From positions 1 through 64,000 of the forward strand of contig JBCCPL010000009.1 of assembly GCA_039111155.1 (NCBI GenBank): 64,000 bases of DNA. Direction: 5' to 3'. Source of the DNA: Pseudomonadota bacterium. Lineage in GTDB: Bacteria; Pseudomonadota; Gammaproteobacteria; Pseudomonadales; Halieaceae. A program made the position numbers and the translations under genes. This document shows positions 32,914 to 63,767 of this stretch, one piece after another. Numbering within the stretch: position 1 is the first letter of the stretch; the number at the start of each line of letters is the position of its first letter. The notes under the pieces are model-generated. The model searched no databases. It saw nothing but the letters and a program-made list of their open reading frames with translations, and was not told where the DNA came from.

Positions 32914-33605
32914 GAACGCTTGCCATGAATGAAGCCAGCAAACCCTTAACAGACAAACGCGAAGGTGCCGGCAATCAGCGCCCGGCGTTACGGGTGGGAA
33001 TCGGCGGTCCGGTTGGATCCGGAAAGACGGCATTGGTCCGACGTTTGTGCGAGCAGCTCCGGGATGCGTACAGCCTCGCGGTAATAACCAATGACATATA
33101 CACACGGGAGGACGCGGAGTTTCTCCTGCGCCACGACGCCTTGGATGCCGATCGAATTCTGGGCGTCGAAACCGGAGGCTGTCCGCATACCGCGATTCGC
33201 GAAGACGCCTCAATGAATCTTGCTGCCGTGGATCAATTGCAGCAGAGCTTCTCCGATTTGCAGTTGCTCTTTATTGAGTCGGGTGGGGATAACCTGGCTG
33301 CCACATTCAGCCCTGAACTGTCTGATCTCACGCTGTACGTCATTGATGTATCAGCCGGTGACAAGATTCCCCGCAAAGGCGGACCGGGGATTACCAAATC
33401 GGACCTACTGATCATAAACAAGACTGATCTTGCACCACTCGTCGGCGCTGACCTTCAGGTTATGGATCGTGATGCGCGAAAGATGCGAGGCGACAAGCCG
33501 TTTGTGTTCAGTAATCTCAAAAGCGAGGAAGGGCTCCCCACGATCCGGGATTTTGTCGTCCGTGCCGGAATGCTTCCCTCTGTTGATGCAATGCCAAACA
33601 CCTAA
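32910..33605 (+). CDS. ureG: urease accessory GTPase UreG
   Basis: P-loop '[14 protein letters not shown]' and '[17 protein letters not shown]' motifs. Confidence 0.9.
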
Positions 33606-33642
33606 TGCTCAATGTGCGCCAACCTGAACCAAATACACGCTG

Positions 33643-37538: not shown

Positions 37539-38455
37539 GGTCCTCGAATACGCACTGGAGCGAGTGGGTCAGAAGCTGCGAACTGCAGGGGCATGCCTAT
37601 GTGCTGATCACTGTGCTGGGTGCCCGCGGCTCGACGCCCCGAGACTCAGGCACAAAGATGCTGGTGTCCAACGGTCGCGAAGACAGTTCTGGGATCGTTA
37701 GCACGGTCTACGGCACAATTGGTGGTGGTCGTCTTGAGTACCTCGCGCTGCAGAAAGCCGCAACGTGCCTGAGCAATCCCCACGGCGGCCAATGGGTCGA
37801 GAACTTTCCCCTTGGCGAGAAGCTGGGTCAATGCTGTGGCGGCAGCGTGACTCTACTGTTCGAACTGTTCGTCCCGTGCTACCCGCAGATTCTGCTGTTC
37901 GGAGCAGGACATGTGGGTCGTGCACTCGCACAGGTCTTAGCGTCGCTGCCAATACGGCTCAAATGGATCGATTCGCGATTCGACGAGTTTCCGGAATCGA
38001 TACCCGACAATGTGGTGAAGGTTTGCACCGATGACCCGATCGCCGAGCTTAGCGCCGCATCCGCTGGCAGTTTTTACATCGTGATGACCCACGAGCACCC
38101 CCTCGACTTTGCGCTTGCTGAGACGGCGCTCAAGCGAGAAGACGCAGCTTACGTGGGCGTCATTGGTTCTGAGCGCAAGGCACAGCGATTCAGGATGCGA
38201 TTGGAGCATCGTGGCTTTTCCACAGCGCAAATCGCCCAGATGCGATGCCCCATCGGATTACCCGAAGTGCGAGGCAAGCAACCGGCCGAGATCGCTGTCT
38301 CGGTGGCCGGCGAAGTCATTGTGGCCTACCAGAAGTACATCGATCACAGTGGCGTTGCAAGCGCAGCTCCGCGATGGAAAGAGTTGCAGACCCTGCTGCA
38401 AACCAGTGAATCAACGCTTGCAGAATCCGATCTTCCCGTGGACACGAACTCATGA
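37535..38455 (+). CDS. xdhC: xanthine dehydrogenase accessory/MoCo-insertion protein XdhC
   Basis: XdhC/CoxI family; N-domain with 'LGARGSTPRDSG' and Rossmann-like C-domain 'ILLFGAGHVGRAL'. Overlaps xdhB stop by 4 nt. Confidence 0.75.
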   Translation: MRSSNTHWSEWVRSCELQGHAYVLITVLGARGSTPRDSGTKMLVSNGREDSSGIVSTVYGTIGGGRLEYLALQKAATCLSNPHGGQWVENFPLGEKLGQCCGGSVTLLFELFVPCYPQILLFGAGHVGRALAQVLASLPIRLKWIDSRFDEFPESIPDNVVKVCTDDPIAELSAASAGSFYIVMTHEHPLDFALAETALKREDAAYVGVIGSERKAQRFRMRLEHRGFSTAQIAQMRCPIGLPEVRGKQPAEIAVSVAGEVIVAYQKYIDHSGVASAAPRWKELQTLLQTSESTLAESDLPVDTNS

Positions 38456-39489
38456 CTGCCGCTGATACCGAACGCTATGCGGACGACTTCATGTTTCGTT
38501 ACATCAATCTGCTGGCGGAGCGTGTGGGTGGACGTGCAATTGACTGCAGTGATCAGTGGTTCGCGAGTTGCGACAATTTGGTTAAGCCAGGACGCGGCGT
38601 ATTCGAACAGGGTCGGTTCACCGAGCGTGGGCAGTGGATGGATGGCTGGGAATCAAGGCGCAGCTATGGCCGGCGGTTTCGCAGCTCCGGAATCGACCAT
38701 GACTGGTGCATTTTGCGGCTAGGGCTACCGGGCGTAGTACGCGGCGTCGACGTCGATACCCTGCACTTTCGGGGGAACGCCCCACTCCAGGTCGCTGTGG
38801 ATGCCACGAAAGTCACCCTCGACCCGGAACCCAGTACGGTTTGGACCCAGATCATTCCGCTGACCGACATTCTGCCCGATGAGCAAAACCCAATACCGTG
38901 CGACAACGAGGGTTGCTGGTCGCATCTACGCCTTAGGATATATCCAGACGGAGGTGTATCGCGGCTGCGCGTGTACGGCGAGGTGATACCCAATCCGGAT
39001 GACTACGTGTCCGGGGAGTTGATTGATCTGGCGTCAGCCGCCATGGGCGGTCGCGGTGTGGCGGCGTCGGACCAGTTTTTCTCGTCCACCGACAATCTGA
39101 TTATGCCCGGTCGGGGAGTAAACATGGGGGACGGTTGGGAGACTCGCCGTCGCCGCGACGAAGGGAATGACTGGGCGATTATCCGTTTAGGGCGTCCGGG
39201 TACGATTCGTAAGGTACTGTTGGACACCGCGCACTTGCGTGGCAACTACCCGGATCGATTCAGCCTGGAGGCCTGTAACGCCCCCAACACCATTGTGCCC
39301 GACGACGATGTGGGCTGGAGCCCGGTGATCCACCAGCACCGCTTGTGCCCAGATCGAGAACATCTATTCACAAAAGATGTGATATGTCCGCCGGAGTATG
39401 AGTTTACGCACGTGCGTTTGCAGATTTACCCGGATGGCGGCGTCAGTCGCCTGAGAATCCTGGGGCATGCGAACTGGTCAGCACCGTGA
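38452..39489 (+). CDS. alc: allantoicase
   Basis: Two tandem allantoicase repeats, each with the 'DGWESRR' / 'DGWETRRRR' motif; 345 aa. Confidence 0.85.
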   Translation: MTAADTERYADDFMFRYINLLAERVGGRAIDCSDQWFASCDNLVKPGRGVFEQGRFTERGQWMDGWESRRSYGRRFRSSGIDHDWCILRLGLPGVVRGVDVDTLHFRGNAPLQVAVDATKVTLDPEPSTVWTQIIPLTDILPDEQNPIPCDNEGCWSHLRLRIYPDGGVSRLRVYGEVIPNPDDYVSGELIDLASAAMGGRGVAASDQFFSSTDNLIMPGRGVNMGDGWETRRRRDEGNDWAIIRLGRPGTIRKVLLDTAHLRGNYPDRFSLEACNAPNTIVPDDDVGWSPVIHQHRLCPDREHLFTKDVICPPEYEFTHVRLQIYPDGGVSRLRILGHANWSAP

Positions 39490-40004
39490 GTCACGTGATT
39501 GCAACTACGCTACAAGCGTTTAACGCCCTTGGCGACAGCGACGCTTATGCACGGTTGGAGCACTGTTGTACAAGCACGCGATGGATAGAGGGGATGTTGG
39601 CTCGGCGCCCGTTCGACAGCGAAAGTACTTTACGTGTGGCGAGTGACGAGGTCTGGCACGACTGTGGCGTGAACGACTGGCTCGAGGCGTTTGAGGGCCA
39701 CCCCAAAATCGGCGACATGGCATCGCTCCAGCGAAAGTACGCCGATACGCAGGCGCTTGCTGCCGGAGAGCAGGCCGGGGTTCAGGGAGCAGCGACCGAT
39801 ACGCTAGAGCGACTCGCTGCGGGGAATCACGAGTACGAAGAGCGTTTCGGCTTTATCTTTATCGTTTGCGCATCGGGGAAGAGCGCCGACGAAATGCTGG
39901 ATCTCCTCGAAGCAAGGCTGGGTAATTCGCGGGAAGAAGAGCTTTCAATCGCCGCACAAGAGCAGCGCAAAATCACACAAATTCGATTGGATACTCTACT
40001 GTGA
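39486..40004 (+). CDS. uraD: 2-oxo-4-hydroxy-4-carboxy-5-ureidoimidazoline (OHCU) decarboxylase
   Basis: 'FEGHPKIGD' His-Pro-x-Ile-Gly motif and C-terminal helical bundle typical of UraD/PucL-N; 172 aa. Confidence 0.8.
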   Translation: MSHVIATTLQAFNALGDSDAYARLEHCCTSTRWIEGMLARRPFDSESTLRVASDEVWHDCGVNDWLEAFEGHPKIGDMASLQRKYADTQALAAGEQAGVQGAATDTLERLAAGNHEYEERFGFIFIVCASGKSADEMLDLLEARLGNSREEELSIAAQEQRKITQIRLDTLL

Positions 40005-40366
40005 GCCAGATAACCACTCATGTTCTGGACACCGCTCGGGGCTGCCCCGCCGACGGCCTGGCCATTCAGCTATTTGAGAGGCATGGCGACGAATGGGTGC
40101 TGCGCGGTGACGGTGTGACCAATTCAGATGGCCGCATCGGCGATCTTCTGCCGCCCGAGACGATACTCGCCGCCGGTGAGTACCGCATGCATTTTGCCAC
40201 CGGGCCCTATCTCAGCCTGCACGCAGCGGCCTTATCGGAGACTGAAGACAGTGCTCCGTTCTATCCTTACGTCGATGTGGTCTTTCATCTCAGGGATGGC
40301 GGAGAGCACTATCACATACCGCTGCTGCTCTCGCCCTACTCCTACTCCACCTACCGCGGCAGCTAG
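40001..40366 (+). CDS. uraH: 5-hydroxyisourate hydrolase (transthyretin-like)
   Basis: 'ITTHVLDTARGCPADGL' N-terminus and diagnostic C-terminal 'YRGS' tetrapeptide. Confidence 0.9.
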   Translation: MSQITTHVLDTARGCPADGLAIQLFERHGDEWVLRGDGVTNSDGRIGDLLPPETILAAGEYRMHFATGPYLSLHAAALSETEDSAPFYPYVDVVFHLRDGGEHYHIPLLLSPYSYSTYRGS

Positions 40367-40464
40367 TCGTAGGGCGGTTGGCTCTCGGACTGTCAATGAT
40401 CTGAACCGCCTGAGATTTGCAACTTAAATGCCTATAAAAAACAGATATTTGCGAGCTTAATTTA

Positions 40465-40962
40465 GTGAAAAATCTCGCTCTTTCTGCTCTTACCGCGGAT
40501 GCCTTTTCGGCCTTTGGCGATGTCGTCGACAGCACGGTTGTCTGCGATCAGTATCCCATCAATGCGGGGCGAACAACCCGTCATCACGCGCTATCCCGCG
40601 TCGACTGTAGTAACGAAGATGGCGAGCCCGTGATCAGCATCTTTCGCGCGTCGCCAGTAGAGGATGGCTTTGTGATGCACGGCATGGAACGCCATCCACT
40701 TGGCTCGCAAACCTTCGTCAATCTATCGCCTTATCCCTACGCTATCGTGGTCGCCCCCGTTGGCGAGTTCGATGAAAGCAAGATAGTGGGTTTTATCGCA
40801 AGACCCCAGCAAAGCATTACGTACCATCGCGGCACCTGGCATCACTATCTTCTGGCCCTGGAAGGTGCTTCTGACTTTGTCGTGATTGATCGAGTTGGGC
40901 CTGGGGAGAACTGCGACGAGGTAGCACTTGCCAACCCACTAAAACTAACCCTTCCGCGATAA
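40465..40962 (+). CDS. allA: ureidoglycolate lyase (cupin fold)
   Basis: N-terminus 'LSALTADAFSAFGDVVD' and 'GTWHHYLLALEGASDFVVIDRVGPGENCDE', typical of AllA. Confidence 0.8.
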   Translation: MKNLALSALTADAFSAFGDVVDSTVVCDQYPINAGRTTRHHALSRVDCSNEDGEPVISIFRASPVEDGFVMHGMERHPLGSQTFVNLSPYPYAIVVAPVGEFDESKIVGFIARPQQSITYHRGTWHHYLLALEGASDFVVIDRVGPGENCDEVALANPLKLTLPR

Positions 40963-40980
40963 GCGATCCTTAGTTCAGCC

Positions 40981-42291
40981 ATGAAACGTCAACTGCATCG
41001 GGGCGCCCTGCTTCATCTCATCGCCGATCCAGGTCAATGCGAAGAACCTGGCAAGGCAAGCTGCTATGAGTACTTCCCGGACGGCGAACTGTTAGTAGAG
41101 GACGGGCACATAGTGGCAACAGGTGCCCTAGGGGCGTTGATCAATGGGCGCGACACGCAAACAGAAGTCATCGAACATCCGCACTCCTTGCTGCTGCCAG
41201 GTTTCATCGACACGCACGTTCATTACCCCCAGCTTGATGTCATCGCCTCCTACGGCTCTCAACTACTCGAATGGCTCGAACGTTATGTGTTTCCGGAGGA
41301 GGCAAAGTTCGGTGATCCAACCTACGCAGAGGCTGTCGCCAAACGGTTCCTCACCGAGTTGCTGGCGAACGGGACCACGACTGCCCTTGTTTATGGAACC
41401 GTCCACCCAGAATCCGTTGATGCATTCTTCACCGAGTGCGAAGCACTTAACTTGCGCATGATCGCAGGCAAAGTCCTGATGGATAGAAACGCACCGGACA
41501 CGCTCCGCGACGATCCCGAAAGAGCGTATGCGCAAAGCAAGGAACTGATCGAACGCTGGCATGGGCGCGGGCGTCTGGCCTACGCCGTTACGCCGCGCTT
41601 CGCATGTACCTCTTCCCCCGAACAGTTGGAAGCCGCAGCGCGCCTGCTCGCTGAGTACCCGGATGTCTACATGCAGACGCACCTGTCCGAGAACCACGAC
41701 GAGATACGTTGGGTAAGCGAACTGTATCCCGAGAGCCTGAACTACTTTGATGTGTACGATTCGGCGGGCCTGGCGCGCAAACGCAGCGTCTTCGCGCACT
41801 GTATTCACTTGCAGGACGCTGAGTGGAATCGCCTGGCCGAGACCCAGTCCAGCATCGCCTTCTGCCCGAGCTCAAACCTCTTCCTTGGGTCTGGTCTGTT
41901 TGCCTTGAACACGGCAAGAGATCATCACATACCCGTCGGTCTTGGATCAGATGTCGGCGCCGGGACAAGCTTGTCCTGCTTCCACACAATGGATGCGGCG
42001 TACAAAACGCAGCAACTGCAAAATGTATCGCTCGACCCGCTGGAAAACCTCTACCTGGCCACCCTGGGGGCCGCCGCATCGCTGGATCTGCATGACAAGA
42101 TCGGTAACTTCTCCGCCGGTAAAGAGGCCGACTTCGTCGTGCTCGATCTGAACGCGACGCCACAAATTGCAGAACGACTGAAGAGAACGCAAACGATCAG
42201 TGAGACTCTGTTCGCCCTGATTACGCTGGGGGATGATCGAGTCGTCGGCGAAACCTGGTCTTTTGGGAAGCGCTGTTACGTCCGTCGATAG
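40981..42291 (+). CDS. guaD: guanine deaminase (amidohydrolase superfamily)
   Basis: 'LLPGFIDTHVHYPQ' metal-binding HxH and 'HLSEN' / 'GLGSDVGAG' motifs of guanine deaminase; 436 aa. Confidence 0.8.
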   Translation: MKRQLHRGALLHLIADPGQCEEPGKASCYEYFPDGELLVEDGHIVATGALGALINGRDTQTEVIEHPHSLLLPGFIDTHVHYPQLDVIASYGSQLLEWLERYVFPEEAKFGDPTYAEAVAKRFLTELLANGTTTALVYGTVHPESVDAFFTECEALNLRMIAGKVLMDRNAPDTLRDDPERAYAQSKELIERWHGRGRLAYAVTPRFACTSSPEQLEAAARLLAEYPDVYMQTHLSENHDEIRWVSELYPESLNYFDVYDSAGLARKRSVFAHCIHLQDAEWNRLAETQSSIAFCPSSNLFLGSGLFALNTARDHHIPVGLGSDVGAGTSLSCFHTMDAAYKTQQLQNVSLDPLENLYLATLGAAASLDLHDKIGNFSAGKEADFVVLDLNATPQIAERLKRTQTISETLFALITLGDDRVVGETWSFGKRCYVRR

Positions 42292-52228: not shown

Positions 52229-52540
52229 ATGATGCAAGAACCCGAAATCAAACGCTGGACGGCCAAACGTAAGGCAGAGCTGATTAAGCAAATCTATCGA
52301 GGGCAGACGACACTTCCAGAGGCTGCCCGGGAGTTTGATCTGACACAGGCTGAAATAGAGAGCTGGATGAACGATGCCGAGGCCGGCATGGAGAACGCGC
52401 TAAAAGCCAACCCTAAAGACATCACCGAGCAATATGAGAAACAGCTAAGTGAGCTCAAGGAAGCGTATGGCGAAGCCATGCTCGAGGTGAAGTTTCTAAA
52501 AAAGTTACAACGCCATCTCGCCTCGACCGAGGAGTCGTAG
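52229..52540 (+). CDS. IS3-family transposase OrfA (HTH)
   Basis: 'TLPEAAREFDLTQAEIESWM' HTH and C-terminal leucine-zipper-like 'LSELKEAYGEAMLEVKFLKKLQ'. Confidence 0.85.
   Translation: MMQEPEIKRWTAKRKAELIKQIYRGQTTLPEAAREFDLTQAEIESWMNDAEAGMENALKANPKDITEQYEKQLSELKEAYGEAMLEVKFLKKLQRHLASTEES
52497..52503 (+). other. A-AAA-AAG slippery heptamer for programmed -1 ribosomal frameshifting (OrfA-to-OrfAB)
   Basis: 'ttctAAAAAAGttac' lies within the 3' end of orfA; orfB is in the -1 frame (orfA frame 2, orfB frame 1). Confidence 0.7.
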
Positions 52541-52557
52541 AGCAATTCATTGCTGAG

Positions 52558-53358
52558 ATGGCTGCGCAAGATTGCCCGATCTCGATCAGCAAGGCCTGTG
52601 CGCTGGCTGACCTGTCACGTCGCACGTATTACTACAAGCCCAAGCGTCGCCGACCGAAGGTGAATGAGTTCCTGATACAGCGCATCAAACGGGTGATCGA
52701 TGCCTTGCCGTACGCGGGCTACCGTACAGTGGCCTGGCTGCTGGGCGAGAACAAGAACACCGTACAGCGGATCTTCCAGATCAAGGGCTGGCAGGTTAGG
52801 AAACGCAAATCCGGTCATCGACCGCGCGTGCGATCCTTGCTTTCGGCAGCGTCCAGGCCGAATGAACGCTGGGCGACGGATATGGCAAGAGTCTGGTGCG
52901 GCGATCAGCACCGCTGGTGTGCACTGACATTGGTCATGGACTGCTTCACGCGGGAGCTCATCGGTTGGCGGCTTAGCCCCACGGGCAACGCCAAAGCTGC
53001 TGAGGCGGCGTTGGAAGAAGCCCTGATCAGCCGCTACGGCATCTTGGGTCGGGCCCAAGATGACCTGACGATTCGATCGGATAATGGCTTAGTCTTCACC
53101 AGTCGGCGGTACACCCGAACGGTGTATCGCTATGGCCTGAAGCAAGAGTTCATCCGCCCTCACACGCCACAGCAAAACGGTATGGTTGAGCGGCTGATAC
53201 GATCTGTAAAGGAGCAGTGCCTGTGGCTCCGTAATGTTGCCTCATTGGACGAGGCTAGGCAGGCATTGGGGGCTTGGTTTCGTTATTACAACGAGCAGCG
53301 ACCCCATCAGGCCCTGGGTATGAAAACGCCCAGGGAAACCTATAGATTAGCGGCGTAG
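52558..53358 (+). CDS. IS3-family transposase OrfB (DDE integrase core, rve)
   Basis: 'WATDMARVWCGDQHRWCALTLVMDCFTRELIGW', 'IRSDNGLVFTS', 'RPHTPQQNGMVERL' DDE motifs; its upstream reading frame extends back into orfA, as in frameshifted fusions. Confidence 0.85.
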   Translation: MAAQDCPISISKACALADLSRRTYYYKPKRRRPKVNEFLIQRIKRVIDALPYAGYRTVAWLLGENKNTVQRIFQIKGWQVRKRKSGHRPRVRSLLSAASRPNERWATDMARVWCGDQHRWCALTLVMDCFTRELIGWRLSPTGNAKAAEAALEEALISRYGILGRAQDDLTIRSDNGLVFTSRRYTRTVYRYGLKQEFIRPHTPQQNGMVERLIRSVKEQCLWLRNVASLDEARQALGAWFRYYNEQRPHQALGMKTPRETYRLAA

Positions 53359-53404: not shown

Positions 53405-54202
53405 TCAGATCGGCGTGAACTTCAGCCAGATTTGCTTGTTGATCGTTGGGCGATTGAGCTCTTCTACTGCTAAGTCTGTTGATCGCGCTGCGGCTTCGAT
53501 GTAAGCAAACGTATACCTCACCACAGCGATAAATCGCTGGTCATCTATGTCAAGCGAATCTCCGACAGCCTCAATCCCGGACGTCCTATTAGGCACCGTG
53601 TGGTAGTGCGACTTAGAGTCTTCTCGCCAGTAGGAAGCCAGAAACACACCCGCCGGACAGGTCGTTCTGAAGCTTTTTAAGATTGACGTAAGCATTCCGG
53701 GCGCTGTGTGGGTCAGGATTGAACGAGCAATGACGTAGTCAAACTGCTCGTCGAAAACCCCAAAGTTGTTTTCGTTGCTGAAGCTAAAACGCGGACGCTT
53801 AAACTCTTGAAGCTCCTCGCCAATGCCAAGCTCAAGGCCAGCTTCCACGCCTTTGCGAAACGGTTCGATCCCAAAGTAACAACCCTCATCCAGAAATCGT
53901 ATTAACCAGTACCCGAGACGCAAAGAGCCGCATCCAAAATCCAAAAGCTTATGCGATGGAAGCAGTCCCTCCGAAAGCAAAGTAGCGAGAGCGTCTCGAC
54001 CCACCGCCTCAAAGGACTTTACCGGACCACCGGAGTAACGGCCCGTTCGTTTCTCTATCTCGACCGCGAGCTTTATGAGCTCTGGGTTGGCTTCTACGTC
54101 TTCGGCTTCTACTAGCCTTTGCGGTTCAGTGCCTACGAACGGCTGAGAACTCACCGTTCTACCAAGCCCAGAGACAAACGCCCGTAATCCAAACAAGTCC
54201 AA
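53405..54202 (-). CDS. class I SAM-dependent methyltransferase
   Basis: Motif I 'LLDFGCGSLRLGYWL' and motif post-I 'YFGIEP'; 265 aa. Confidence 0.65.
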   Translation of the reverse strand: MDLFGLRAFVSGLGRTVSSQPFVGTEPQRLVEAEDVEANPELIKLAVEIEKRTGRYSGGPVKSFEAVGRDALATLLSEGLLPSHKLLDFGCGSLRLGYWLIRFLDEGCYFGIEPFRKGVEAGLELGIGEELQEFKRPRFSFSNENNFGVFDEQFDYVIARSILTHTAPGMLTSILKSFRTTCPAGVFLASYWREDSKSHYHTVPNRTSGIEAVGDSLDIDDQRFIAVVRYTFAYIEAAARSTDLAVEELNRPTINKQIWLKFTPI

Positions 54203-54263: not shown

Positions 54264-55286
54264 CTACGCGGCCTCCGAATCCGAAAGAAACTTTGCTAGT
54301 AGCCTAGTCGCGTCCTCCCATGGCGGATCCGTGCCGTGGGTTGGGTAAACGAGGCCAGGCTCATTGAAAAGATCGTCCCGACCGAACCATTTCTGAGCGA
54401 CTCTGCGGTTTGATTCAATGAATGCTGTATTGAATTCTTCTGCTTCGGAGCGCGGAGGTAGAAGAGGAGTCCCGACCTCCGCGCCTTGAAGAAATCGATC
54501 GAGCTTTTCTCTTGTAGGAGCTACCTCATCGCGACGTTCAAAATTGAGTCGGTTGAAGGTCAGCATCGCCAGCTGCCCTGCTGCATCGTAAGATCTATTG
54601 ACCGGCCTTTCTTCGATTTTATTGGGCAGAGTGCAGCCGATTCGCTCAAAAAAATCGGCTATGACATTGCCTGAAACCAGCGATGAGCGTTCATAAACGT
54701 AGGGTGTGACATTGCTATGGCCAACGGCTGAGGCCCAACGATCGAGCAGAGATTCGAAGTCAAAGAAGTCAGGAAGATTGGGTTTGCATTTCCTGATTCC
54801 GAGAATCGGCAGAATGAAAGGCGGTACGAATCCGCCCCGTAGCTTTTGCGTGTAGAAACTAAGTGCCATACGTTCTTGCGGCCGCAGGTAACAGATGACC
54901 CTGATTTCAGTGAAGTATTCTTTAATCGAGTCAACGAAGTGCCCCACCTCGCGATTAGATGTCAACCGCGACTGGAAGTGCTCAGAGGTGATCAACATCG
55001 TATCCACTTTTCTTCTTTGCCTCTGAACTTGCTTTGAGAGGGACTCCAGTAGCGCGCCTCTCCGGTCCTCCCGAGCCCTTGGCGTTACAAGATTTGCAGC
55101 CTGGAGAAAATCATCGTTCTTGGTGCTATCCATGAATACACAGGCAAGCTCTAGATGATTTGCGCCTTCTAGAAAGTCCGGAACCATAATTCCAGACCGC
55201 AGGATTCGATAGCGGTTCTCTTGTATGTACTGTTGAAGCGCTGTCGTGCCCGTCTTCTCAGTGCCGATATGTAGTAAGAGCCGCAA
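54264..55286 (-). CDS. sulfotransferase-family-like P-loop protein
   Basis: N-terminal 'LLLHIGTEKTGTTALQQYI' resembles the 5'-PSB loop of bacterial sulfotransferase-family proteins (K-[ST]-G-T-T); weak recognition. Confidence 0.4.
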   Translation of the reverse strand: MRLLLHIGTEKTGTTALQQYIQENRYRILRSGIMVPDFLEGANHLELACVFMDSTKNDDFLQAANLVTPRAREDRRGALLESLSKQVQRQRRKVDTMLITSEHFQSRLTSNREVGHFVDSIKEYFTEIRVICYLRPQERMALSFYTQKLRGGFVPPFILPILGIRKCKPNLPDFFDFESLLDRWASAVGHSNVTPYVYERSSLVSGNVIADFFERIGCTLPNKIEERPVNRSYDAAGQLAMLTFNRLNFERRDEVAPTREKLDRFLQGAEVGTPLLPPRSEAEEFNTAFIESNRRVAQKWFGRDDLFNEPGLVYPTHGTDPPWEDATRLLAKFLSDSEAA

Positions 55287-56043
55287 AGTAGATCCCGCTC
55301 CTCAAATGCGTGTGCATGACGAGAGAGCTAAACTTGAAATCTTCACCGTCATTGTGCCGGCACGTTACGGTAGCAGTTAGTTCGTTGCCATCGTCTGCTG
55401 TCACGACTTCGAAGCAGCGTTTTTAGTCGCCCGCATTCGTCGCGAAAAATAGGCCCTGGGGCATGAATCGCCAGATCGACTCCCTGGTTTGTACCGTGGG
55501 ATCACTATTGATCTTCATGGTCAACGACTCTGACAAGCGTTCGCTCTGGCTCGACGCTGAACTGAAAGAAATCTGCAAACCGGTGATATGCGCATCCTTG
55601 GCGATGGATTTACTGCCCAGCTTCCAGACCTGCGCCGTACCAGCAACCGGCTTTTTCGGTCGCAACGTGAGCGCCAGTGTTTTGCTTTCCGGACGGGGAA
55701 CTTCGATTAGCACAGCAGTGAGCCTGGAATATAAGAGCTCACGAAAATATCGCCCGCACGATGACAACGCTATTTCAGAGTCTTACCACTTACACCGCAG
55801 CCGTTGCCTGCTAAGTCGCTCGTTAAGTCGCAATTTGAAAAGGGGCCTTTGCAGGAGCGGGGCAACGTGTAGAGGCCGACCCCGATTGTTGGACGGCGCT
55901 TTGGTCGTACACAAGCAATTCTTGCGGTGGCCAATGAACAAGGACAAGGCGTGAATCCGGACACGTTGCGTCTTCTCCGGTAGCTCTGCCTCACAGCGTT
56001 CAGTGCGCCCTATCTATCTCGCTCTCATCCACTGGGCCTCTTC

Positions 56044-56088
56044 AATGAGTGGTCCAACTCATTAACTTTATATACAAAAGTTAATGAG
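56044..56088. repeat. nested inverted repeats AATGAGT / ACTCATTAAC / GTTAATGAG in a gene-less AT-rich stretch
   Basis: AATGAGT (56044-56050) pairs with ACTCATT (56057-56063). ACTCATTAAC (56057-56066) pairs with GTTAATGAG (56080-56088) around a 13-nt A/T loop. Confidence 0.4.
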
Positions 56089-56757
56089 CCGCTGTGGTCG
56101 ATTCTGCGGTTATGTCGTTGCATATTGAATTTTTACTCATACCCTGTGCGTGATCCGACTAAAACCGATGCCATGCTTTGAAGCCAGTGAGCGTCGGCGT
56201 TTATCCTGGTCTGATGACTGCTGACAACCGACAAGCCCAGTGCCGGGCGAGGATTTGGTGTCGAGAATGCTTTTTGGTCAAGTTCGCCTATCCTACTTGT
56301 CTGGACTAAATTGCTTATTTACCAGCACCTACAGTAGATCGCTCAGACCGCAGGCGTTCGGTCAAGCAATCGCCGTTCTGGAGTCGACAGTACATCGTGT
56401 CGAAGCAAAGGCCATCGTGAGGAATTGCCTCAACCGGTGATCGCGAGGGAGTGCATTCACCCCCATGCAGCCAGAAACGATGATGTAGGCGGCAAGCTAC
56501 GAGCCCGTTTCGAGCAACGGCACCCATATACGTTGCCTGTGGTGCGGTAGTCGTGAACAGGGGCTGTTTCGAGCTGGCGCTGTATTAGGGGCCGTGACCA
56601 CACGACAGACTTTGGTGCTCTCCACACTCTTTGCTGGAGTTGAATTCTGTTGACAGCGTAGCAGCGAAGATTTCACTTGATCTCTAGTCGTCTTTGCCGG
56701 GGAACAAGAACGTCAAACTCTGAAGAGATTAATTTGGCCTGAGAAAAGGACTGCGAA

Positions 56758-57897
56758 ATGGATAGTATTGTCGGGCGCCGAGAATTTCTCGTAACGAGCG
56801 GTCTCGTTGCAGCCGGTTTGACCGCTGGCTGCGCAACAGAAGCAGGACCGGAAGCCACTTCGAGCGGTCTGGCCGTCATGCCAAATTCGGACGGCCTTGT
56901 TCGACTGAATTTGGCGGAAAACGCCTGGGGCTGTTCAAAAAAAGCTTATGAAGCCATCGTGAATCACGCTCACGGCGTTAATCGCTATGCTGGCGCTGAG
57001 AAGGAGGCGTTGATCGCACATATTGCTGAGACCAATGGAGTCTCGGCGGATCAGATCGTTCTGGGCAATGGATCTAAGCCGATTCTTGCTGCAGCGGGCG
57101 CGGTGTTCGCGCGCCGCAGTGGTCGGTTGGTCACATCTGACCTGACCTATCTCGTTCTCAACAGTTCGGCCGAGCAGTTTGGCACCGAACTCGTTCGGGT
57201 TCCGCTCACGGAAACCGATGATTGGGACTTTGCCTCGATGGTGGCGGCCTTAAATGACGAAACGATCGGCACATATGTGTGTAATCCAAACGGCCCCACG
57301 GGCCGTCTCTGTGATCCTGTTGAGCTGCGTGCCTTCGTGATTGAAGCGGCAAGATATGGGCCGGTCTTTGTGGATGAGGCGTACCTTGATATGTCGCCCG
57401 ACTATCCGGCCAATTCCATGGTTGGTCTGGTCGCCGAAGGGCACAACGTCATCGTCTCTCGTACCCTGTCCAAAATGCATGGCCTCGCCGGTCAACGCCT
57501 GGGCTATGCGATGGGGCCAGCTGAACTCGTCGCGAGCATCCAAAAGCTCCTAACAAACCACGTTAACCTTGCTGGTCTGGTCGCCGGCTTAGCGAGTCTG
57601 GAAGACATTGCGTTCCAGGAGGAGATGCGTGAGCGTTTCAAACTTGGGCGCGCACGGCTCGTCGGTTTGATCGACGATCTGGGCCTCAATTACGTTCAAG
57701 CACCGATGCACAATGGCGTTCTGTTCGATGTAGGTACGCCCGTACCCGACTTTCACAAAAAGATGCTGTCAGAAAACATACTCGTTCGAAGCGGCGGCTA
57801 TGGTGGTGAGCGAGCAACATGGACCTCCATTTGTGTCGTCACAGAGTCCGAAATGGACAAGGTTGAGATTGCGATGAAAAAAGTCTTCAAAGCGTAG
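56758..57897 (+). CDS. Tat-signal (possibly lipidated) class I/II PLP aminotransferase (HisC-like fold)
   Basis: N-terminal twin-arginine motif 'GRREFLVTSGLVAAGLTAGCA' (RRxFL then lipobox-like LTAGC). Mature domain has aminotransferase class I/II motifs ('GSKPIL', 'FVDEAY', 'RTLSKMHGLAGQRLGY' with Lys for PLP). Confidence 0.7.
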   Translation: MDSIVGRREFLVTSGLVAAGLTAGCATEAGPEATSSGLAVMPNSDGLVRLNLAENAWGCSKKAYEAIVNHAHGVNRYAGAEKEALIAHIAETNGVSADQIVLGNGSKPILAAAGAVFARRSGRLVTSDLTYLVLNSSAEQFGTELVRVPLTETDDWDFASMVAALNDETIGTYVCNPNGPTGRLCDPVELRAFVIEAARYGPVFVDEAYLDMSPDYPANSMVGLVAEGHNVIVSRTLSKMHGLAGQRLGYAMGPAELVASIQKLLTNHVNLAGLVAGLASLEDIAFQEEMRERFKLGRARLVGLIDDLGLNYVQAPMHNGVLFDVGTPVPDFHKKMLSENILVRSGGYGGERATWTSICVVTESEMDKVEIAMKKVFKA

Positions 57898-58425
57898 TCT
57901 TGGAGCACGTACACACATCGTTCGGCGGATAGATTTCGATCAATCTTTTTGGAAGCATAGCGACTTGTAGGATAGAGATATGTGGTGGAGGACAGGCCTA
58001 CCCGCCAAATCGAAACCAGTTTCGAGGCGCTCGCCGGTGAAGTCCGACCTTTCAACGATTCACTGTTTTTTTGAATGCCTCGTCAACAGTCGTTAAGGCG
58101 CTCTCTTCCACCCGATGCATTACCGCGTTCTGCATACGAGTTGACGGAGCCCAATCGGCACGCAGAGAAGAGAACAGCGCATATTCCGTGTTAAGCCATT
58201 GAATTTACAAGTTTGAATGAACTCTAAAGCTGCAATTTGATCTGGCGGTGTGGCAGACATGCAATCGACGATGTGGGGCCGAGCACGAAAGTCGTGTTGA
58301 AGAACCAGCTATCGAGGGCAAGTGTCGGCTAGTCTGATCACCGACATTAGCCTACCTGTTCCAATGTCAGGTAGTTAAAGCAATGTTGAGGGGCGCAGAA
58401 AATCCAGTAGTAGGGCGGCAGATCT

Positions 58426-59676
58426 ATGGCTAAGGATTCCGGAAGTACTGTGTCGGTTGACTCGGGCGTAAGCCGCCGAACGTTTGGTAAGACGGCTTTA
58501 GCTTCGACTCTGCTGCTGGGCACCCCATCGGCTTCGGGCGCAACGGAAGTGATCGGAGAAACAGATACCGGATACTTTCTTCCTTGGGTCGAGACTCGTA
58601 CTGAAGCCCTTCGTCATAATGCATCTGTCATCTCGGCAGCGACGGGCGGGCGCCAAATTGTCGCGGTGGTAAAGACAAACGGTTACGGGATTGGTGACAT
58701 CGCAGTTGCCCAATCCCTGGACGACGCGCCTGCGGTTTGGGGCACGATGGTCGTGCGACCAGAAGAAGCGCTACGGCTTGCGAGAGCCGGAATCCGCAAA
58801 CCGGTTCTTTTGATGGGAGCCAGAGTCGATCAGACGACGGCTCGTGAACTTGTTTCTCGCGGCGTGCGCTTATCACTCACTTCGCTCGACGAAATCAAGA
58901 TGCTCGCCAACGTCGCTAGCGAGTTAGGTGAGCCGATCCCGGTACATCTGGAGATCGACACTGGTTACGGGCGAATGGGTGCTCTCTACTCTGAGACCAA
59001 GCTTTGGGCCCGCGAACTCATGGATGCTAATCATCTGCGGTTGGAGGGCGTTTCCACCTATTACGTAGACGATGAAGCAGTCACAAACACGCAGATCGCA
59101 CGCTTCAATACGGCGCTCGCGCAGATCACCGCGGCCGGTTTGCGGCCAGAGATAATCCACGCACCCCACTCCAATCCGATTCTCGGCCGGCCGCAGACAC
59201 TGAAGGGGTGCAATGCTACTCGACCCGGACTGATCATTTACGGCGTCTATCCAAACGCTCGACGATGGCAGGCGAGTCGTCTGGACCTGCAGGTTGCGCA
59301 TCGACTCATGACCCGTATCTTGCGCGTTGAAAAGCTAGAGCCCGATCACGGAGCCATCGCCGGACTGCCGATTAAGCTGTCGGTACCGCGCTACTTCGCA
59401 ACTATCGGCATCGGCGTTCATGATGGCCTGCGATACTACCCAGCGCGGGGAAGAACCAAACGTGTGGAAATACGCGGACGCCTTTACAACGCCACTGAGG
59501 GACGCAACTACAACCATATGATGATTGATCTCGGCGAGGCAGAAACTGACGTCACTGCGGGTGATATCGTAAAGATCTTCAGCTGGGAGCGCCCTGAACT
59601 CCATCCCAATTCCGATGTGGACACCGCTTATTGGCAAGCGTTTTACGGACCCGATATCCGTAGGACAACGCTGTGA
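58426..59676 (+). CDS. Tat-signal alanine-racemase-like PLP enzyme (periplasmic amino-acid racemase candidate)
   Basis: 'SRRTFGKTALASTLLLGTPSASGA' Tat-type signal. Mature region begins with the alanine-racemase N-domain 'VAVVKTNGYGIG' (PLP-lysine) and includes the C-terminal beta domain; 416 aa. Confidence 0.7.
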   Translation: MAKDSGSTVSVDSGVSRRTFGKTALASTLLLGTPSASGATEVIGETDTGYFLPWVETRTEALRHNASVISAATGGRQIVAVVKTNGYGIGDIAVAQSLDDAPAVWGTMVVRPEEALRLARAGIRKPVLLMGARVDQTTARELVSRGVRLSLTSLDEIKMLANVASELGEPIPVHLEIDTGYGRMGALYSETKLWARELMDANHLRLEGVSTYYVDDEAVTNTQIARFNTALAQITAAGLRPEIIHAPHSNPILGRPQTLKGCNATRPGLIIYGVYPNARRWQASRLDLQVAHRLMTRILRVEKLEPDHGAIAGLPIKLSVPRYFATIGIGVHDGLRYYPARGRTKRVEIRGRLYNATEGRNYNHMMIDLGEAETDVTAGDIVKIFSWERPELHPNSDVDTAYWQAFYGPDIRRTTL

Positions 59677-59849
59677 TGTTGCGGCGACGACAGGTCCTTA
59701 AAGCGGCAGGTTGTTTGCCCCTAGCAGGTGTACTGACGACCCAGTCACAAACCTTGTATGCGGCACGGGTCGACGATGCGCACCCAGCAAAGCGCGATGG
59801 CTGACGTACGTAGGGCAAAAACTGAGGCTCGTAGCGAAGGTGACCGAGA

Positions 59850-60758
59850 GTGCCCAAACCTACCCTAATGATCGACTCCTCAATCCGCCCTACCGACAAT
59901 GCAAAGGGCTGCGTAGATGAGAATGGGCAACACTCGTTCGCCGGGTTTACTCAGAGAATCGAAAGACTGGTTGAGCTTTGGCAACTGGCCGACGTAGTGC
60001 CATTAACAAATCTCTCCGTTAACTTCTTAGCAAACGCGATTCGCGACGGTCAGAGGGTTGTCCTTAAGATCGGTCGGGAAGAAAAGGCTATTCATCGAGA
60101 AAGCAGCTGGCTTACACATTACGGCCAACACACCTCCCGCGTGGTTGTCCCAGTATTGGAGCGCGATGGCCATGACGCTTATCTTATGCCACGACTTGAT
60201 CCCGGGATAAGTGTGGATCGCATCCCCGATGACACTGCGACTGAGATAATCGGAAGCTGTATTAACAGTCTTACCGAATCCTCCACAACGATTCCGCTGG
60301 AGCCAAGCTATCCCAATCTCCGAGAATGGTTCACTCTCCTAGAGCACACTAGCGAAGCGTCACGGCGCAAGCTCTGCAAACGTATCGACCGGGCGTACGG
60401 TCTATTCTGCGAGTTAGTGCATGCCAGTGAGTCAAGACTACTGCATGGCGACCTCCACCATTACAACTTACTCAACGACAATAATTGCTGGATCGTAACG
60501 GATCCTAAAGGGGTCATCGGTGATCCGAGTCATGAGTGTGCTGCCATGCTCCGCAATGCGTTGGGATCTCTTCACGGCGCAGTTTCGCGTGGAGTCCGTC
60601 GTCGTGTTGACCAACTGGCATCGATCACTGGTTTCGAAGCGAGTCGCATCGCCGCCTGGGGCTACGCCCAGAACGTTTTGTCGTGTGCTTGGGCACTCGA
60701 AGAAGACCCGTACACCGATGTCAGTGAAGTTCTAGTGGTGGTTGATGCACTTGAGTAA
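59850..60758 (+). CDS. aminoglycoside phosphotransferase family protein, APH(6)/StrB-like
   Basis: 'LLHGDLHHYNLLNDNNCWIVTDPKGVIGDPSHE' (catalytic HGDLHxxN plus D motif) matches the streptomycin-6-kinase-like family; 302 aa. Confidence 0.65.
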   Translation: MPKPTLMIDSSIRPTDNAKGCVDENGQHSFAGFTQRIERLVELWQLADVVPLTNLSVNFLANAIRDGQRVVLKIGREEKAIHRESSWLTHYGQHTSRVVVPVLERDGHDAYLMPRLDPGISVDRIPDDTATEIIGSCINSLTESSTTIPLEPSYPNLREWFTLLEHTSEASRRKLCKRIDRAYGLFCELVHASESRLLHGDLHHYNLLNDNNCWIVTDPKGVIGDPSHECAAMLRNALGSLHGAVSRGVRRRVDQLASITGFEASRIAAWGYAQNVLSCAWALEEDPYTDVSEVLVVVDALE

Positions 60759-60953: not shown

Positions 60954-63767
60954 CTAGATTACAGCACCACCGCTAAGACCTTCCGCGCGTTTCAGAAGAT
61001 CTTCGCGCCGCGGATAGTCGCGCCGCAGCTGCAGCAGCACAGCGTTCGCCAAATCGATGGCCTCCTCAGCTCGCTTCTCTCTGACTAGAAGATCCGCCTC
61101 AATGAGCTTCGCCCGAAGCACATCCGGATGATTGGGATATCGCGTTAGCGTTTGCGACACCATCTTGAGCGCGCGGGATGCTCCGGCAACATCGCCCAAG
61201 GACGCTTGGATGTCTGCAAGGTCCACGACTCGAGTAAGGAAATGCGGGCTGTCAAGCACTTGCTGCTGCTTGATCAGCTCAAAGTAACGTTCCAGGTACT
61301 CGCGCGCTGACCGTAAGTTGCCATTAGCCCGCTCTAAGAGATACTGGTGCATGGACCAGGTTTCGAAGTCCTGGTTTTGTCTACCGCGCAGCGCAATGAG
61401 TCCGGCCAGTGCGGTGTCAAAAAGGTCTTTGGCCTCATCGATTTGACCCGCAGCCACAAGCGCATAGCTCAGGAATCTCTGTGAGTCGTAGTCGCCGTAG
61501 CTCCCCTCGCCGTGCAGTGCCTGGCGCAGTGCAAGGGACCGCCTGCTGGCAGCGACCCCTTCTTCCACGGCTCCCGCCTGGATCAGGAAACGGCTTTGGT
61601 TGGCCAACAATACTTCGAGATTTCGACGTCCTTCTGGACCTTCGCGAGCCGCAAATATGGCGAGCAGTGACTCGCTGGCCGCAAGTGCCTCGGGAATTCG
61701 TCCCGCTTCGCCAAGATAAAGAACCAGCGTGTTAGCACTAACCAGCGAATCCCAGGAGTCCCCGCCGTAGAGCGCCTGCTCGATACGCTGTGCCTCCTCT
61801 TCATGGGTGATAGCACGGTGTATGTCGCCCCGCCGATAGAACAGACTGCTCAGGCTGCTGTGGACCCTTCCGACGGTGCGATGCGTTTGGCCATAGTTGG
61901 CATTGGCCAGCCTGAGGGCACGCTCATTAACCTGCAACGCTGAGCTGTACTCGCCGGTGAATCCCAGCGCTAGAGCGAGTGTTCGTAGCGGATCAATGAA
62001 GCGATGGCTCATGGGTGATTCGTCTTTCTCCAGCAAGTCCACCGCAGCCTGCGCGTAGTCTCTGGTCATCTCGAAGTCTTCTCTACCGATTTCGACCCAA
62101 GCCAGCGAAGTTAGCACGTCCGCGCGTTCGCGATCGTGAGCGCTTCCTAGACCTTCAAGGATCTCCATCGCCTGCAAGTAGGTATTTGTGGCGACCTCAA
62201 ATTCATCCTTGGCATAAGCGAGATAGCCAAGGGTGCGTAGATAGCGCGCCCTGATCGCCGCGGGCAACTGGTCAACGGCAACCGCTCGCGTGAGTTGACC
62301 AAGCACTTCATCTGCAGTAACAACCTGACGGTCCTGAAGAGTGAGCTGGATGGTGTCCAGCTGAATCTCGGTAAAAAGGTCAGGAGATTCCACCGCGGAG
62401 GCGAGTACTGTAGCCTCGCGAAAGCTCGCTTTTGCTTCCTTCAGACGACCGAGTCGCCACTCGGCATTGGCGCGAATACGAATGAGATTTGCCAGGGTTG
62501 CGTCGTCCGAAGCTAGCTCTTGCGACGCCAGCCGGATAGCGTCCTCAAAAACTGATTTAACGATTGCTGCAGAACCCGTTTCTTGCTCCGCGACATGATC
62601 CTGAAGGTCCGACATCGACTCCGTCAGCAGCCGTGACAATGCCTTGCTAGCCCGTGTCGCGCTCGCCGCACGGGCCTCAGCCAGTTCCTCGGACTTGCTC
62701 AAAGACCGCGTGTAGCTGAAGGTGATGCCCATCAGCACGATTCCGGCGGCAGCAATGACTGAAGCGACGGTTCGATGACGCTTCAGGAAGCGGCCAGCTA
62801 GGTAGGTGCCGCTTCGGCTCGCCGCAGACACCGGATAATCGCCCTGAAAGGCCGCGAGGTCTCTTGCCAGTGCGTCTGCCGACGGATATCGGGCTTGAGG
62901 TTCTGCTCGCAGACACCGCTCAACAATCAGCTGTAGATCCCTTGGGATTGATCGCCGAAACTTAGGGGGAATCGACAGATCTTCGCCTCGAGCAGCGATC
63001 GCTATCGCCTGCTCAATCGCGTTTGGCGGCAGCAGCGATTGCCCGGTGAGCAAGCGATACAGCAATGCACCAAGTTGAAAGATGTCCGACGCAATTGTTA
63101 CTGGCTTCCCTAAAAGCTGCTCGGGGCTAGCAAAGTGCGGGGTCATCGCGCGTATCGCCGTGCCACTGTCGGTGTCATTTACCAAAAGTTTGGCAATTCC
63201 AAAGTCCAGCAGCTTTGGTTGGTCAAACCAATCCACCATCACATTGCCTGGTTTGATATCACGATGGACGATGAGGTGAGCATGTGCATAAGCAACAGCT
63301 GCCGTAATCGCTTGCAGCAGTGTTACCGCCGTCGACACGGGATTGCCGCGCGAATCGCAGTAAGCGTCTACCGATTCTCCCCTGATCAACTCCATCACCA
63401 TGTAGGGACGACCGCTGACACTGACTTGGGCATCGTAGAGGCGGGTGATGTTTGGATGATCCAGTGCCGCCAGAAGACTTAGTTCCTGGTCAAATCGTCG
63501 ACGGAGTTCAGCACTGATTGAGGCGCCCATGGAGACTTTCACCGCAACGTCGTGTTCGAAGTTACCATCGGCGCGCTCGCCTCGGTAGATCCGGCTCATA
63601 CCACCCTCGCCAATGACTTCAACGAGACGGTATTGGCCTAAAGTACTGCCGAGCAGACAGTCTTCGCTTTTCCCCATCAGGTCGATACCGAGCCGCAACC
63701 CGTATCCGGTGGAGAGTCCTGATTTGTCGGTCTTGAGCATGTCGGGCGCCTTACCTGTCAACAACAA
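60954..63767 (-). CDS. Hanks-type Ser/Thr protein kinase fused to a single TM helix and a long TPR array
   Basis: N-terminal kinase subdomains ('VAVK', 'HRDIKPGNVMV', 'DFGIAK', 'APE'), a TM segment (VIAAAGIVLMGITFSY), then ~550 aa of TPR-like repeats; 937 aa. Confidence 0.85.
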   Translation of the reverse strand: MLLTGKAPDMLKTDKSGLSTGYGLRLGIDLMGKSEDCLLGSTLGQYRLVEVIGEGGMSRIYRGERADGNFEHDVAVKVSMGASISAELRRRFDQELSLLAALDHPNITRLYDAQVSVSGRPYMVMELIRGESVDAYCDSRGNPVSTAVTLLQAITAAVAYAHAHLIVHRDIKPGNVMVDWFDQPKLLDFGIAKLLVNDTDSGTAIRAMTPHFASPEQLLGKPVTIASDIFQLGALLYRLLTGQSLLPPNAIEQAIAIAARGEDLSIPPKFRRSIPRDLQLIVERCLRAEPQARYPSADALARDLAAFQGDYPVSAASRSGTYLAGRFLKRHRTVASVIAAAGIVLMGITFSYTRSLSKSEELAEARAASATRASKALSRLLTESMSDLQDHVAEQETGSAAIVKSVFEDAIRLASQELASDDATLANLIRIRANAEWRLGRLKEAKASFREATVLASAVESPDLFTEIQLDTIQLTLQDRQVVTADEVLGQLTRAVAVDQLPAAIRARYLRTLGYLAYAKDEFEVATNTYLQAMEILEGLGSAHDRERADVLTSLAWVEIGREDFEMTRDYAQAAVDLLEKDESPMSHRFIDPLRTLALALGFTGEYSSALQVNERALRLANANYGQTHRTVGRVHSSLSSLFYRRGDIHRAITHEEEAQRIEQALYGGDSWDSLVSANTLVLYLGEAGRIPEALAASESLLAIFAAREGPEGRRNLEVLLANQSRFLIQAGAVEEGVAASRRSLALRQALHGEGSYGDYDSQRFLSYALVAAGQIDEAKDLFDTALAGLIALRGRQNQDFETWSMHQYLLERANGNLRSAREYLERYFELIKQQQVLDSPHFLTRVVDLADIQASLGDVAGASRALKMVSQTLTRYPNHPDVLRAKLIEADLLVREKRAEEAIDLANAVLLQLRRDYPRREDLLKRAEGLSGGAVI

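Follow-up and report, generated by a model that had tools for sequence, protein, structure and literature searches.

The window analyzed here is a 64,000-nucleotide stretch of a Halieaceae contig, and all coordinates below refer to it. Within it, two genes for enzymes that depend on pyridoxal 5'-phosphate (PLP) lie next to each other on the same strand: a HisC-like aminotransferase (open reading frame 1, ORF1) and an alanine racemase-like protein (ORF2), each of which opens with a twin-arginine (RR) leader. A first-pass annotation of this DNA had noted both genes and both leaders and proposed that the two exported enzymes work together, interconverting D- and L-amino acids and keto acids in the periplasm. 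The genes and their leaders are as annotated; the evidence presented below points to two unrelated enzymes that became neighbors in a single population, with ORF2 probably derived from an operon that it once shared with an amidase gene. The features on which the argument rests are the following.

56758 to 57897, plus strand: ORF1, HisC-like class I/II aminotransferase of the PtaA/PRK09105 type, carrying an RR leader and probably a lipobox, 379 amino acids
56758 to 56832, plus strand: leader of ORF1, MDSIVG-RR-EFL, hydrophobic stretch VTSGLVAAGLTAG, Cys25 in a lipobox-like L-T-A-G-C
57898 to 58425, no strand: intergenic spacer between ORF1 and ORF2, 528 bp
58426 to 59676, plus strand: ORF2, alanine racemase-fold PLP protein with an RR leader, from a rare clade without Tyr265'/His166, 416 amino acids
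58426 to 58572, plus strand: leader of ORF2, 16-residue n-region, S-RR-TFGK, hydrophobic TALASTLLLG, c-region PSASGA
59673 to 59804, plus strand: truncated remnant of an RR-leader amidase gene, 43 codons, its GTG start overlapping the ORF2 stop codon

For both ORFs, the start given is the earliest possible one past an upstream stop codon. ORF1 opens MDSIVGRREFLVTSGLVAAGLTAGC, its N terminus reading MDSIVG-RR-EFLVTSGLVAAGLTAG-C, and ORF2 opens MAKDSGSTVSVDSGVSRRTFGKTALASTLLLGTPSASGA, with an N terminus that reads ...VS-RR-TFGKTALASTLLLGTPSASGA.

ORF2 has the fold of an alanine racemase (Alr) and keeps part of its active site. It passes the profile of the N-terminal domain (PF01168, Ala_racemase_N) with 160.2 bits and falls below the thresholds of the C-terminal domain (PF00842, Ala_racemase_C; 22.1 bits, gathering score 25) and of the alr model TIGR00492 (135.9 bits, cut-off 168). 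The top Foldseek matches of its AlphaFold2 model are Alr structures, with template modeling scores of 0.73 to 0.77. The residues that bind PLP are retained, namely, K83, Y87, R183, S249, and R266, equivalent to Lys39, Tyr43, Arg136, Ser204, and Arg219 of Alr, and three of these (K83, R183, and R266) are invariant columns in the ORF2 alignment. The loss of Tyr265' and of its partner His166 was established by two independent alignment methods, phmmer against the Alr sequences of the Protein Data Bank (PDB) and MAFFT. In the phmmer alignments, the ORF2 segment "aiAG" stands opposite "(i/v)sYG", so that A312 occupies the Tyr265' position; in MAFFT alignments of 120 and of 156 homologs, A312 falls in the Tyr265' column, without gaps up to the conserved A-T...G..DG motif. 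Tyr fills this column in 140 of the top 156 representative clusters. Within the ORF2 clade, the column holds Ala in six members, Ser in one, and Cys in one, and because the residue varies in this manner, position 312 is taken not to be catalytic in the clade.

Further changes surround this position. His166 is replaced by Y212 (STYY instead of FTHF), the V-C-M-D of the canonical RVCMDQ by N361-Y362-N363-H364, and IGYADG by IGVHDG. In the clade, Thr211 (motif S-T-Y-Y), Tyr212, Tyr362, and His364 are all invariant, and ORF2 keeps every clade-invariant residue. The NYNH loop, which includes Tyr362 and His364, is presumed to line the active site beside Tyr265', as the corresponding loop does in Alr structures. 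The ratio of nonsynonymous to synonymous substitution rates (dN/dS) of ORF2 versus its relatives is about 0.08, with dS saturated. Judged by its active-site residues, ORF2 is not a canonical two-base alanine racemase.

The ORF2 clade is small. An exhaustive phmmer search of 1.84 billion (1.84e9) representatives recovered only two 50%-identity clusters that belong to it (75% and 43% identity), the next match being at 37%, and no relatives of the clade were found in scans of metagenome contigs. The next tier, from 37% down, is a broad set of Alr-like proteins with RR leaders that keep the Tyr, carry "VSASH" in place of the Alr "VCMDQ", and have GH(T/A/S)DG for GYADG. In the loci examined, the genes near members of this family (L092 to L095 and L012 among the fetched loci, numbered with the prefix L; proteins P0010-P0052 and P0209-P0243) include those for a DAO-family oxidase, a Peptidase_S58 (DmpA-like) protein, an ADI/DDAH-family protein, and amino acid-binding proteins. 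The VSASH-bearing family is apparently both broad and undescribed; a literature search with incomplete full-text coverage found no papers on Tat-exported enzymes of the alanine racemase fold.

ORF1 is the more conventional of the two proteins. It matches the aminotransferase profile PF00155 (Aminotran_1_2) with 131.8 bits against a gathering score of 19.7, and its best PDB relative is 3ly1, a "putative histidinol-phosphate aminotransferase". The scores against the more specific models lie below their cut-offs: 199.1 bits versus 444 for NF006580/PRK09105, in an alignment over residues 4 to 378 that includes the leader; 183.6 versus 276.55 for hisC (TIGR01141); and 157.2 versus 500 for PtaA (NF051461). 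Because the equivalog cut-offs are missed, ORF1 is, on these scores, not PtaA itself. ORF1 has the PLP lysine K239 and the remaining cofactor set (D206, Y209, N178, and R247), residues that 75 to 87 of 87 homologs conserve, and it is, as its residues indicate, a catalytically complete fold-type I aminotransferase of the HisC family. Its dN/dS versus relatives is about 0.05, again with dS saturated. Close relatives of ORF1 (72 to 84% identity) occur in three distinct contexts over six loci (L006 to L011), namely, next to a Peptidase_M78 gene and a cluster of extracytoplasmic function (ECF) sigma factor, FecR, and TonB receptor genes; between a methionyl-tRNA-synthetase-like gene and a major facilitator superfamily transporter gene; and beside a gene without annotation and one for a TonB-dependent receptor. 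None of these six loci includes a racemase neighbor. By its relatives and their contexts, ORF1 is a stand-alone gene of an already known kind, the PtaA-like periplasmic transaminases.

Both leaders have the makeup of signals for the twin-arginine translocation (Tat) pathway. Each combines a motif resembling S/T-R-R-x-F-L-K with a hydrophobic region after it and, beyond that, a site for cleavage or a lipobox (G-RR-EFL-V and LTAG followed by C in ORF1; S-RR-TFG-K and PSASGA in ORF2). The combination of RR and a hydrophobic stretch recurs in nearly all N-terminally complete ORF2 relatives among the top 52 matches, one of which has KR, and in most of the top 60 ORF1 relatives. In the leaders of these homologs, the residues around the RR diverge, and the length ahead of the RR ranges from 2 to about 40 residues; in the ORF2 clade, the RR is invariant in 7 of 7 N-terminally complete members despite differing surroundings. 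The first-pass annotation had pointed out that export would be called into question if the RR formed part of the mature fold, and both leaders were found to lie outside it. The AlphaFold2 model of ORF1 (predicted local distance difference test [pLDDT] score, 91.8) is of low confidence over residues 1 to 45, the leader forming a lone helix (residues 7 to 24) followed by disorder up to about residue 47, and the fold begins at about residue 48. In the model of ORF2 (pLDDT, 87.7), residues 1 to 48 score below 50. Furthermore, the solved cytoplasmic homologs of the two proteins in the PDB align only from about residue 36 to 55 on. Because the leaders are modeled at low confidence and the PDB homologs start later, the RR does not belong to the mature fold of either protein. 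A precedent is provided by periplasmic transaminase A (PtaA) of Pseudomonas fluorescens, for which experiments have shown passage through the membrane via Tat in the folded state and with its PLP (reviewed in PMC6206403). Given that the RR leaders recur in homologs, sit outside the folds, and have this precedent, ORF1 is probably exported by Tat, and so, with slightly less confidence, is ORF2.

The leader of ORF1 might also direct lipidation, as the first-pass annotation had suggested from its LTAGC motif. A lipobox rule of the PROSITE PS51257 type, matched by hand, calls for [LIVMFWSTAG](2)-[LIVMFYSTAGCQ]-[AGS]-C, an uncharged hydrophobic region before the Cys, a Cys at position 15 to 35, and K/R near the N terminus; ORF1 fits it with L-T-A-G-C25, R7, and R8. 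All five of the nearest ORF1 homologs retain the Cys at which the hydrophobic region ends (LTAGC, LTAGC, LTTAC, LAAGC, and LLSAC), which makes it plausible that ORF1 is a Tat-dependent lipoprotein anchored at Cys25.

The neighborhoods of the close relatives of ORF2 (about 70 to 81% identity; five independent loci, L001/L002, L003/L004, L005, L097, and L098) reveal a different partner for this gene. In four of the five loci, all except L098, the next gene downstream encodes a full amidase-signature amidase (PF01425, about 500 amino acids), and at L098 the first 26 amidase codons are present at the contig end. The start of the amidase gene overlaps or abuts the stop codon of the racemase-like gene in these relatives, and all of their amidases have RR leaders (MTIRRREVLK, MTWRRRDVLAG, MTLRRRDILMG, MRRRDMLAG, and MTVRRREVLK). 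As an enzyme, the amidase is of a generic kind, with a Rhodococcus amidase, GatA, and peptide amidase as its best relatives in the PDB. A gene for a TonB-dependent receptor is located immediately upstream at L001/L002, and genes for exported peptidases (S9, S15, and gamma-glutamyltranspeptidase) are located nearby in several of the loci. An aminotransferase neighbor is absent from all five (L001 to L005, L097, and L098).

The beginning of this amidase gene was detected in the window as well. A tblastn search with the N terminus of the L001 amidase matches 59673 to 59789 (44% identity, E value of 2e-4), and the translation, VMLRRRQVLKAAGCLPLAGVL..., is close to MTVRRREVLKAAGCLYLAGML of L098 and then stops. 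The remnant scores 15.8 against the Tat-signal profile TIGR01409 (cut-off, 16.7) and was called as a 42-amino-acid ORF by the gene caller in a sister assembly (L100). On this similarity, 59673 to 59804 is the stump of a deleted amidase gene. Conversely, tblastn searches of the window with the TonB-dependent receptor and the gamma-glutamyltranspeptidase of the relatives yielded no remnants. The place of the deleted amidase is filled by an APH(6)-like gene that starts at 59850.

Close relatives of both ORF1 and ORF2 are also found near genes for Fur-family regulators and TonB-dependent receptors (L001, 8270-8698 region; L006/L007, 1382-8698) and, in one case, near a cluster of ECF-sigma, FecR, and PepSY_TM genes. 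The Fur and TonB neighborhoods hint that these relatives reside in metal-regulated uptake loci. No genes of the Fur, TonB, or ECF-sigma type lie beside the ORF1-ORF2 pair in the window.

For the pairing of the two genes, 98 related loci were fetched, some of which are ordinary cytoplasmic Alr loci that were collected by a too-general pattern (AV[VI]K..YG) and serve as negative controls only. In none of the 98 does an Alr-like gene occur together with a gene for a HisC-like aminotransferase. The arrangement of the window is also present in three other assemblies, and because their DNA is at least 99.9% identical, these are considered to represent the same population. The recurrence in four assemblies means that the arrangement is not an assembly artifact, yet it amounts to no independent conservation.

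The surroundings of the pair bear marks of rearrangement. The stretch from 49.5 to 60.8 kb has a lowered GC content, at 0.50 to 0.53 in the part that bears an insertion sequence (IS), and an IS3-type transposase sits 3.4 kb upstream of ORF1. Comparison of the window with related loci indicates that DNA homology with the relatives ends at the gene borders, and the 528-bp spacer (57898 to 58425) shows no DNA homology to related loci. The noncoding gaps on either side of ORF1, 55287 to 56757 (1.47 kb) and 57898 to 58425 (0.53 kb), are unusually long. Scans of the plus strand from 55.3 to 60.9 kb, which include the spacer, detected no Rfam match and no promoter-like or terminator-like site; neither gap contains such a match or site or has homology to related loci, and the gaps may be debris of gene decay. 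A repeat search of 49 to 64 kb for terminal repeats and for IS or island boundaries returned only short, chance-level matches. Given the IS- and gap-bearing region, the homology that ends at the gene borders, and the absence of both genes together from all 98 loci, the adjacency of ORF1 and ORF2 is best explained as accidental, a by-product of rearrangement. Separate transcription of the two genes, raised in the first-pass annotation, fits the 528-bp gap, and the empty promoter and terminator scans speak neither for nor against it. The other genes around the pair are the following.

52229 to 53358, plus strand: IS3-type transposase, made up of an ORF with HTH_Tnp_1 and, after it, an integrase ORF with rve/rve_3 (rve domains at 52558 to 53358)
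53405 to 54202, minus strand: ORF with a weak methyltransferase domain
54264 to 55286, minus strand: 340-amino-acid ORF with no Pfam or NCBIfam match, with a GTEKTGTT motif at its start, P-loop/sulfotransferase-like
59850 to 60758, plus strand: gene for a phosphotransferase resembling APH(6)/hydroxyurea kinases (92 bits against PF04655; far under the NCBIfam APH(6) cut-offs)
60954 to 63767, minus strand: Ser/Thr protein kinase with tetratricopeptide repeats

Elsewhere in the window, a cluster for nitrogen and purine catabolism (29761 to 42291), with genes for the urease alpha subunit, xanthine dehydrogenase-type molybdoenzyme subunits, allantoicase, and an amidohydrolase, is unrelated to ORF1 and ORF2. 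A very long ORF of 1,755 amino acids followed by an ORF of 628 amino acids without a Pfam match occupies 13352 to 18619 on the minus strand.

Taken together, these observations are most consistent with two unrelated, probably Tat-exported periplasmic PLP enzymes that stand side by side only in this population and form no module, ORF2 having come from an amidase operon; we put the probability of this reading at roughly two in three. ORF1 would fold and bind PLP in the cytoplasm, cross the membrane by Tat, probably become lipid anchored at Cys25, and transaminate the L-amino group of a periplasmic substrate. ORF2 would likewise fold with PLP in the cytoplasm before export by Tat. Its gene would have been the first of an ancestral two-gene operon that encoded an Alr-fold PLP enzyme and an amidase, both with RR leaders, and from which the amidase gene, save its first 43 codons, was deleted in the population of the window. 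ORF2 keeps the full PLP-binding set together with the D-face base Lys83 (equivalent to Lys39) and lacks the L-face base Tyr265' and the helper His166, which would leave two options for its chemistry. The enzyme could racemize or epimerize by means of an L-face base at a new position, for which Tyr362/His364 or Tyr212 are candidates and the ornithine racemase OrnR a precedent, or it could work from the D-face lysine only, in a reaction of the aldol cleavage or elimination type on what the amidase produces or consumes, as suggested by the Y265A mutant of Alr. Under either option, ORF2 and the amidase would jointly process imported compounds (amides, peptides, or D-amino acids), in the periplasmic scavenging of nitrogen from peptides or amides.

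One alternative is the reading that had motivated interest in the locus, namely, a periplasmic module in which the two exported enzymes, aminotransferase and racemase, interconvert D- and L-amino acids and keto acids, for example, in cell wall remodeling. The two genes are indeed adjacent and on the same strand, both encode PLP enzymes with RR leaders, both are intact and under purifying selection, and their arrangement is stable in the four assemblies. However, these assemblies, being at least 99.9% identical, offer no independent support; the pair is missing from 98 of 98 related loci; the close relatives of each gene have other or no conserved neighbors; and the 528-bp gap lacks operon signals. 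Moreover, ORF2 has no Tyr265' base and had a partner of its own, the amidase, which is now deleted. HisC-like aminotransferases of fold type I are regarded as L-specific, and direct interconversion of D-amino acids and keto acids by ORF1 is not expected. The module is accordingly judged very unlikely, and the functional partnership and the interconversion put forward in the first-pass annotation are both unsupported. Several points nevertheless weigh against the interpretation of ORF1 and ORF2 as unrelated exported enzymes. An adjacency that is not conserved may still be compatible with a lineage-specific functional link in this organism, and the independent loci are few, five for the racemase clade and three contexts for the aminotransferase clade. 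In addition, the Tat profiles give ORF1 scores below threshold (14.5 bits versus 22.7 for PF10518; 13.6 versus 16.7 for TIGR01409) and do not match the leader of ORF2 at E values up to 10. Finally, the saturated dS supports only long-term purifying selection, so that, had selection on the orphaned ORF2 relaxed recently, this would not show.

The latter two points each correspond to an alternative of their own. The RR motifs might not be functional Tat signals, in which case the proteins would be cytoplasmic or exported by Sec with an incidental RR. Besides the profile scores, this possibility draws on the weakly hydrophobic core of the ORF2 leader: a crude and hence unreliable screen, which combined RR with hydrophobicity, flagged ORF1 and a rhomboid-family membrane protein and missed the ORF2 leader, the mean hydropathy of which is estimated at about 0.66 versus the cut-off of 0.8. 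Against it, weakly hydrophobic cores are typical of Tat signals, and the short profiles PF10518 and TIGR01409 are insensitive. The RR is invariant while the rest of the leader diverges, both in the two enzyme families and among the partner amidases, the leaders are extensions of 45 to 50 residues outside the folds, both proteins are cofactor-binding enzymes and hence typical Tat cargo, and a homologous transaminase is experimentally Tat dependent (PMC6206403). Export by another route, or none, is therefore considered quite unlikely; the leaders themselves are read directly from the translations and hold up fully, and Tat export is retained as likely, tempered by the profile scores. It is also unlikely, if slightly less so, that ORF2 is a functionless orphan turning into a pseudogene after the loss of the amidase. 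The reduction of the partner gene to 43 codons, the IS element, and the long noncoding stretches of the region would all fit such decay, but ORF2 is full length, keeps all clade-invariant residues, and has an omega of about 0.08 versus its relatives, a value that, with dS saturated, recent decay would escape.

With ORF1 and ORF2 viewed as unrelated enzymes, what makes the locus interesting is not the ORF1-ORF2 pair but the Tyr-less exported enzyme together with its amidase, ORF1 being ordinary. RR-leader proteins of the alanine racemase fold are widespread in metagenomes, and in one tiny marine clade among them the catalytic Tyr has been lost and there is genetic coupling to an exported amidase. 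We tentatively raise the possibility, doubtful as it is at present, that the ORF2 type and the RR-leader amidase constitute an undescribed periplasmic two-enzyme system, in which ORF2 would use a relocated base or catalyze a reaction other than racemization (D-specific aldol cleavage, elimination, or epimerization of amino acid amides) on substrates that enter through a TonB-dependent receptor. If so, this would be a new reaction specificity among the fold-type III PLP enzymes, in a Tat-exported protein. Through characterization of the clade, the fold-type III PLP enzymes could gain a new reaction type, or a case in which the catalytic base has moved, and the routes by which marine bacteria scavenge amide, peptide, or D-amino acid nitrogen in the periplasm could gain a new step.

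Among known systems, PtaA and PRK09105 are the closest to ORF1, which, as they do, opens with an RR leader and belongs to the HisC-like PLP aminotransferases of fold type I. An exported aminotransferase is not a novelty, as PtaA, which has already been published, is a periplasmic PLP transaminase that Tat exports and that falls in the same HisC-like group; ORF1 matches it through NF051461, and PtaA homologs are also found in species that make no pyoverdine (PMC6206403). ORF1 differs from these proteins in scoring far below their models (157 versus 500 and 199 versus 444) and in the lipobox-like Cys of its closest clade; furthermore, in contrast to the PtaA setting, the window is devoid of pyoverdine genes. 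A search of the literature for Tat-dependent periplasmic PLP aminotransferases, with incomplete full-text coverage, found none beyond the work on PtaA and PvdN in pyoverdine biosynthesis.

For ORF2, the general frame of reference is Alr/DadX (TIGR00492; PDB 1sft and 4lus), with which it shares the two-domain fold, the PLP lysine, and the equivalents of Tyr43, Arg136, Ser204, and Arg219. It differs in having Ala for Tyr265', Tyr for His166, and NYNH for V-C-M-D, in carrying a 50-residue RR leader, and in falling below the TIGR00492 and PF00842 cut-offs. In the broad-spectrum racemases, Bsr (BsrV; P. putida Alr; PDB 4dyj), the Lys/Tyr pair is intact and the leaders are of the Sec type, and we know of no amidase partner for them. 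ORF2 resembles these enzymes in its alanine racemase fold and predicted export, the periplasmic location of Bsr being documented (PMC7890096). Nonetheless, it matches 4dyj with an E value of 1.2e-6, versus 1.9e-27 for ordinary Alr, and with this weak similarity and the absence of the Tyr, membership in Bsr was rejected; the label "alanine racemase-like, Bsr-like" of the first-pass annotation does not suit a protein that lacks both Tyr265' and His166.

The ornithine racemase OrnR (Salmonella STM2358) has the Alr fold but neither the catalytic Tyr nor the PLP-stacking His, and its base is Cys164 on another loop (PMC13397332). Since OrnR racemizes without the Tyr, the loss of Tyr265' alone does not preclude racemization. 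The catalytic Cys of OrnR lies at the position of Alr Thr165, where the ORF2 clade keeps Thr (T211), and OrnR has been described without an export leader, unlike ORF2 with its RR leader. ORF2 matches the NCBIfam model racem_Orr with an E value of only 5e-4, and assignment to the OrnR type was rejected on account of the Thr, rather than Cys, at the key position. Finally, the engineered Alr mutant Y265A (Seebeck and Hilvert, 2003) showed sharply reduced racemization and gained D-specific retro-aldol activity on D-beta-hydroxy-amino acids (PMC6411801). Although Y265A is a laboratory mutant and ORF2 belongs to a natural clade, the two share the same fold and the same replacement of Tyr265 by Ala.

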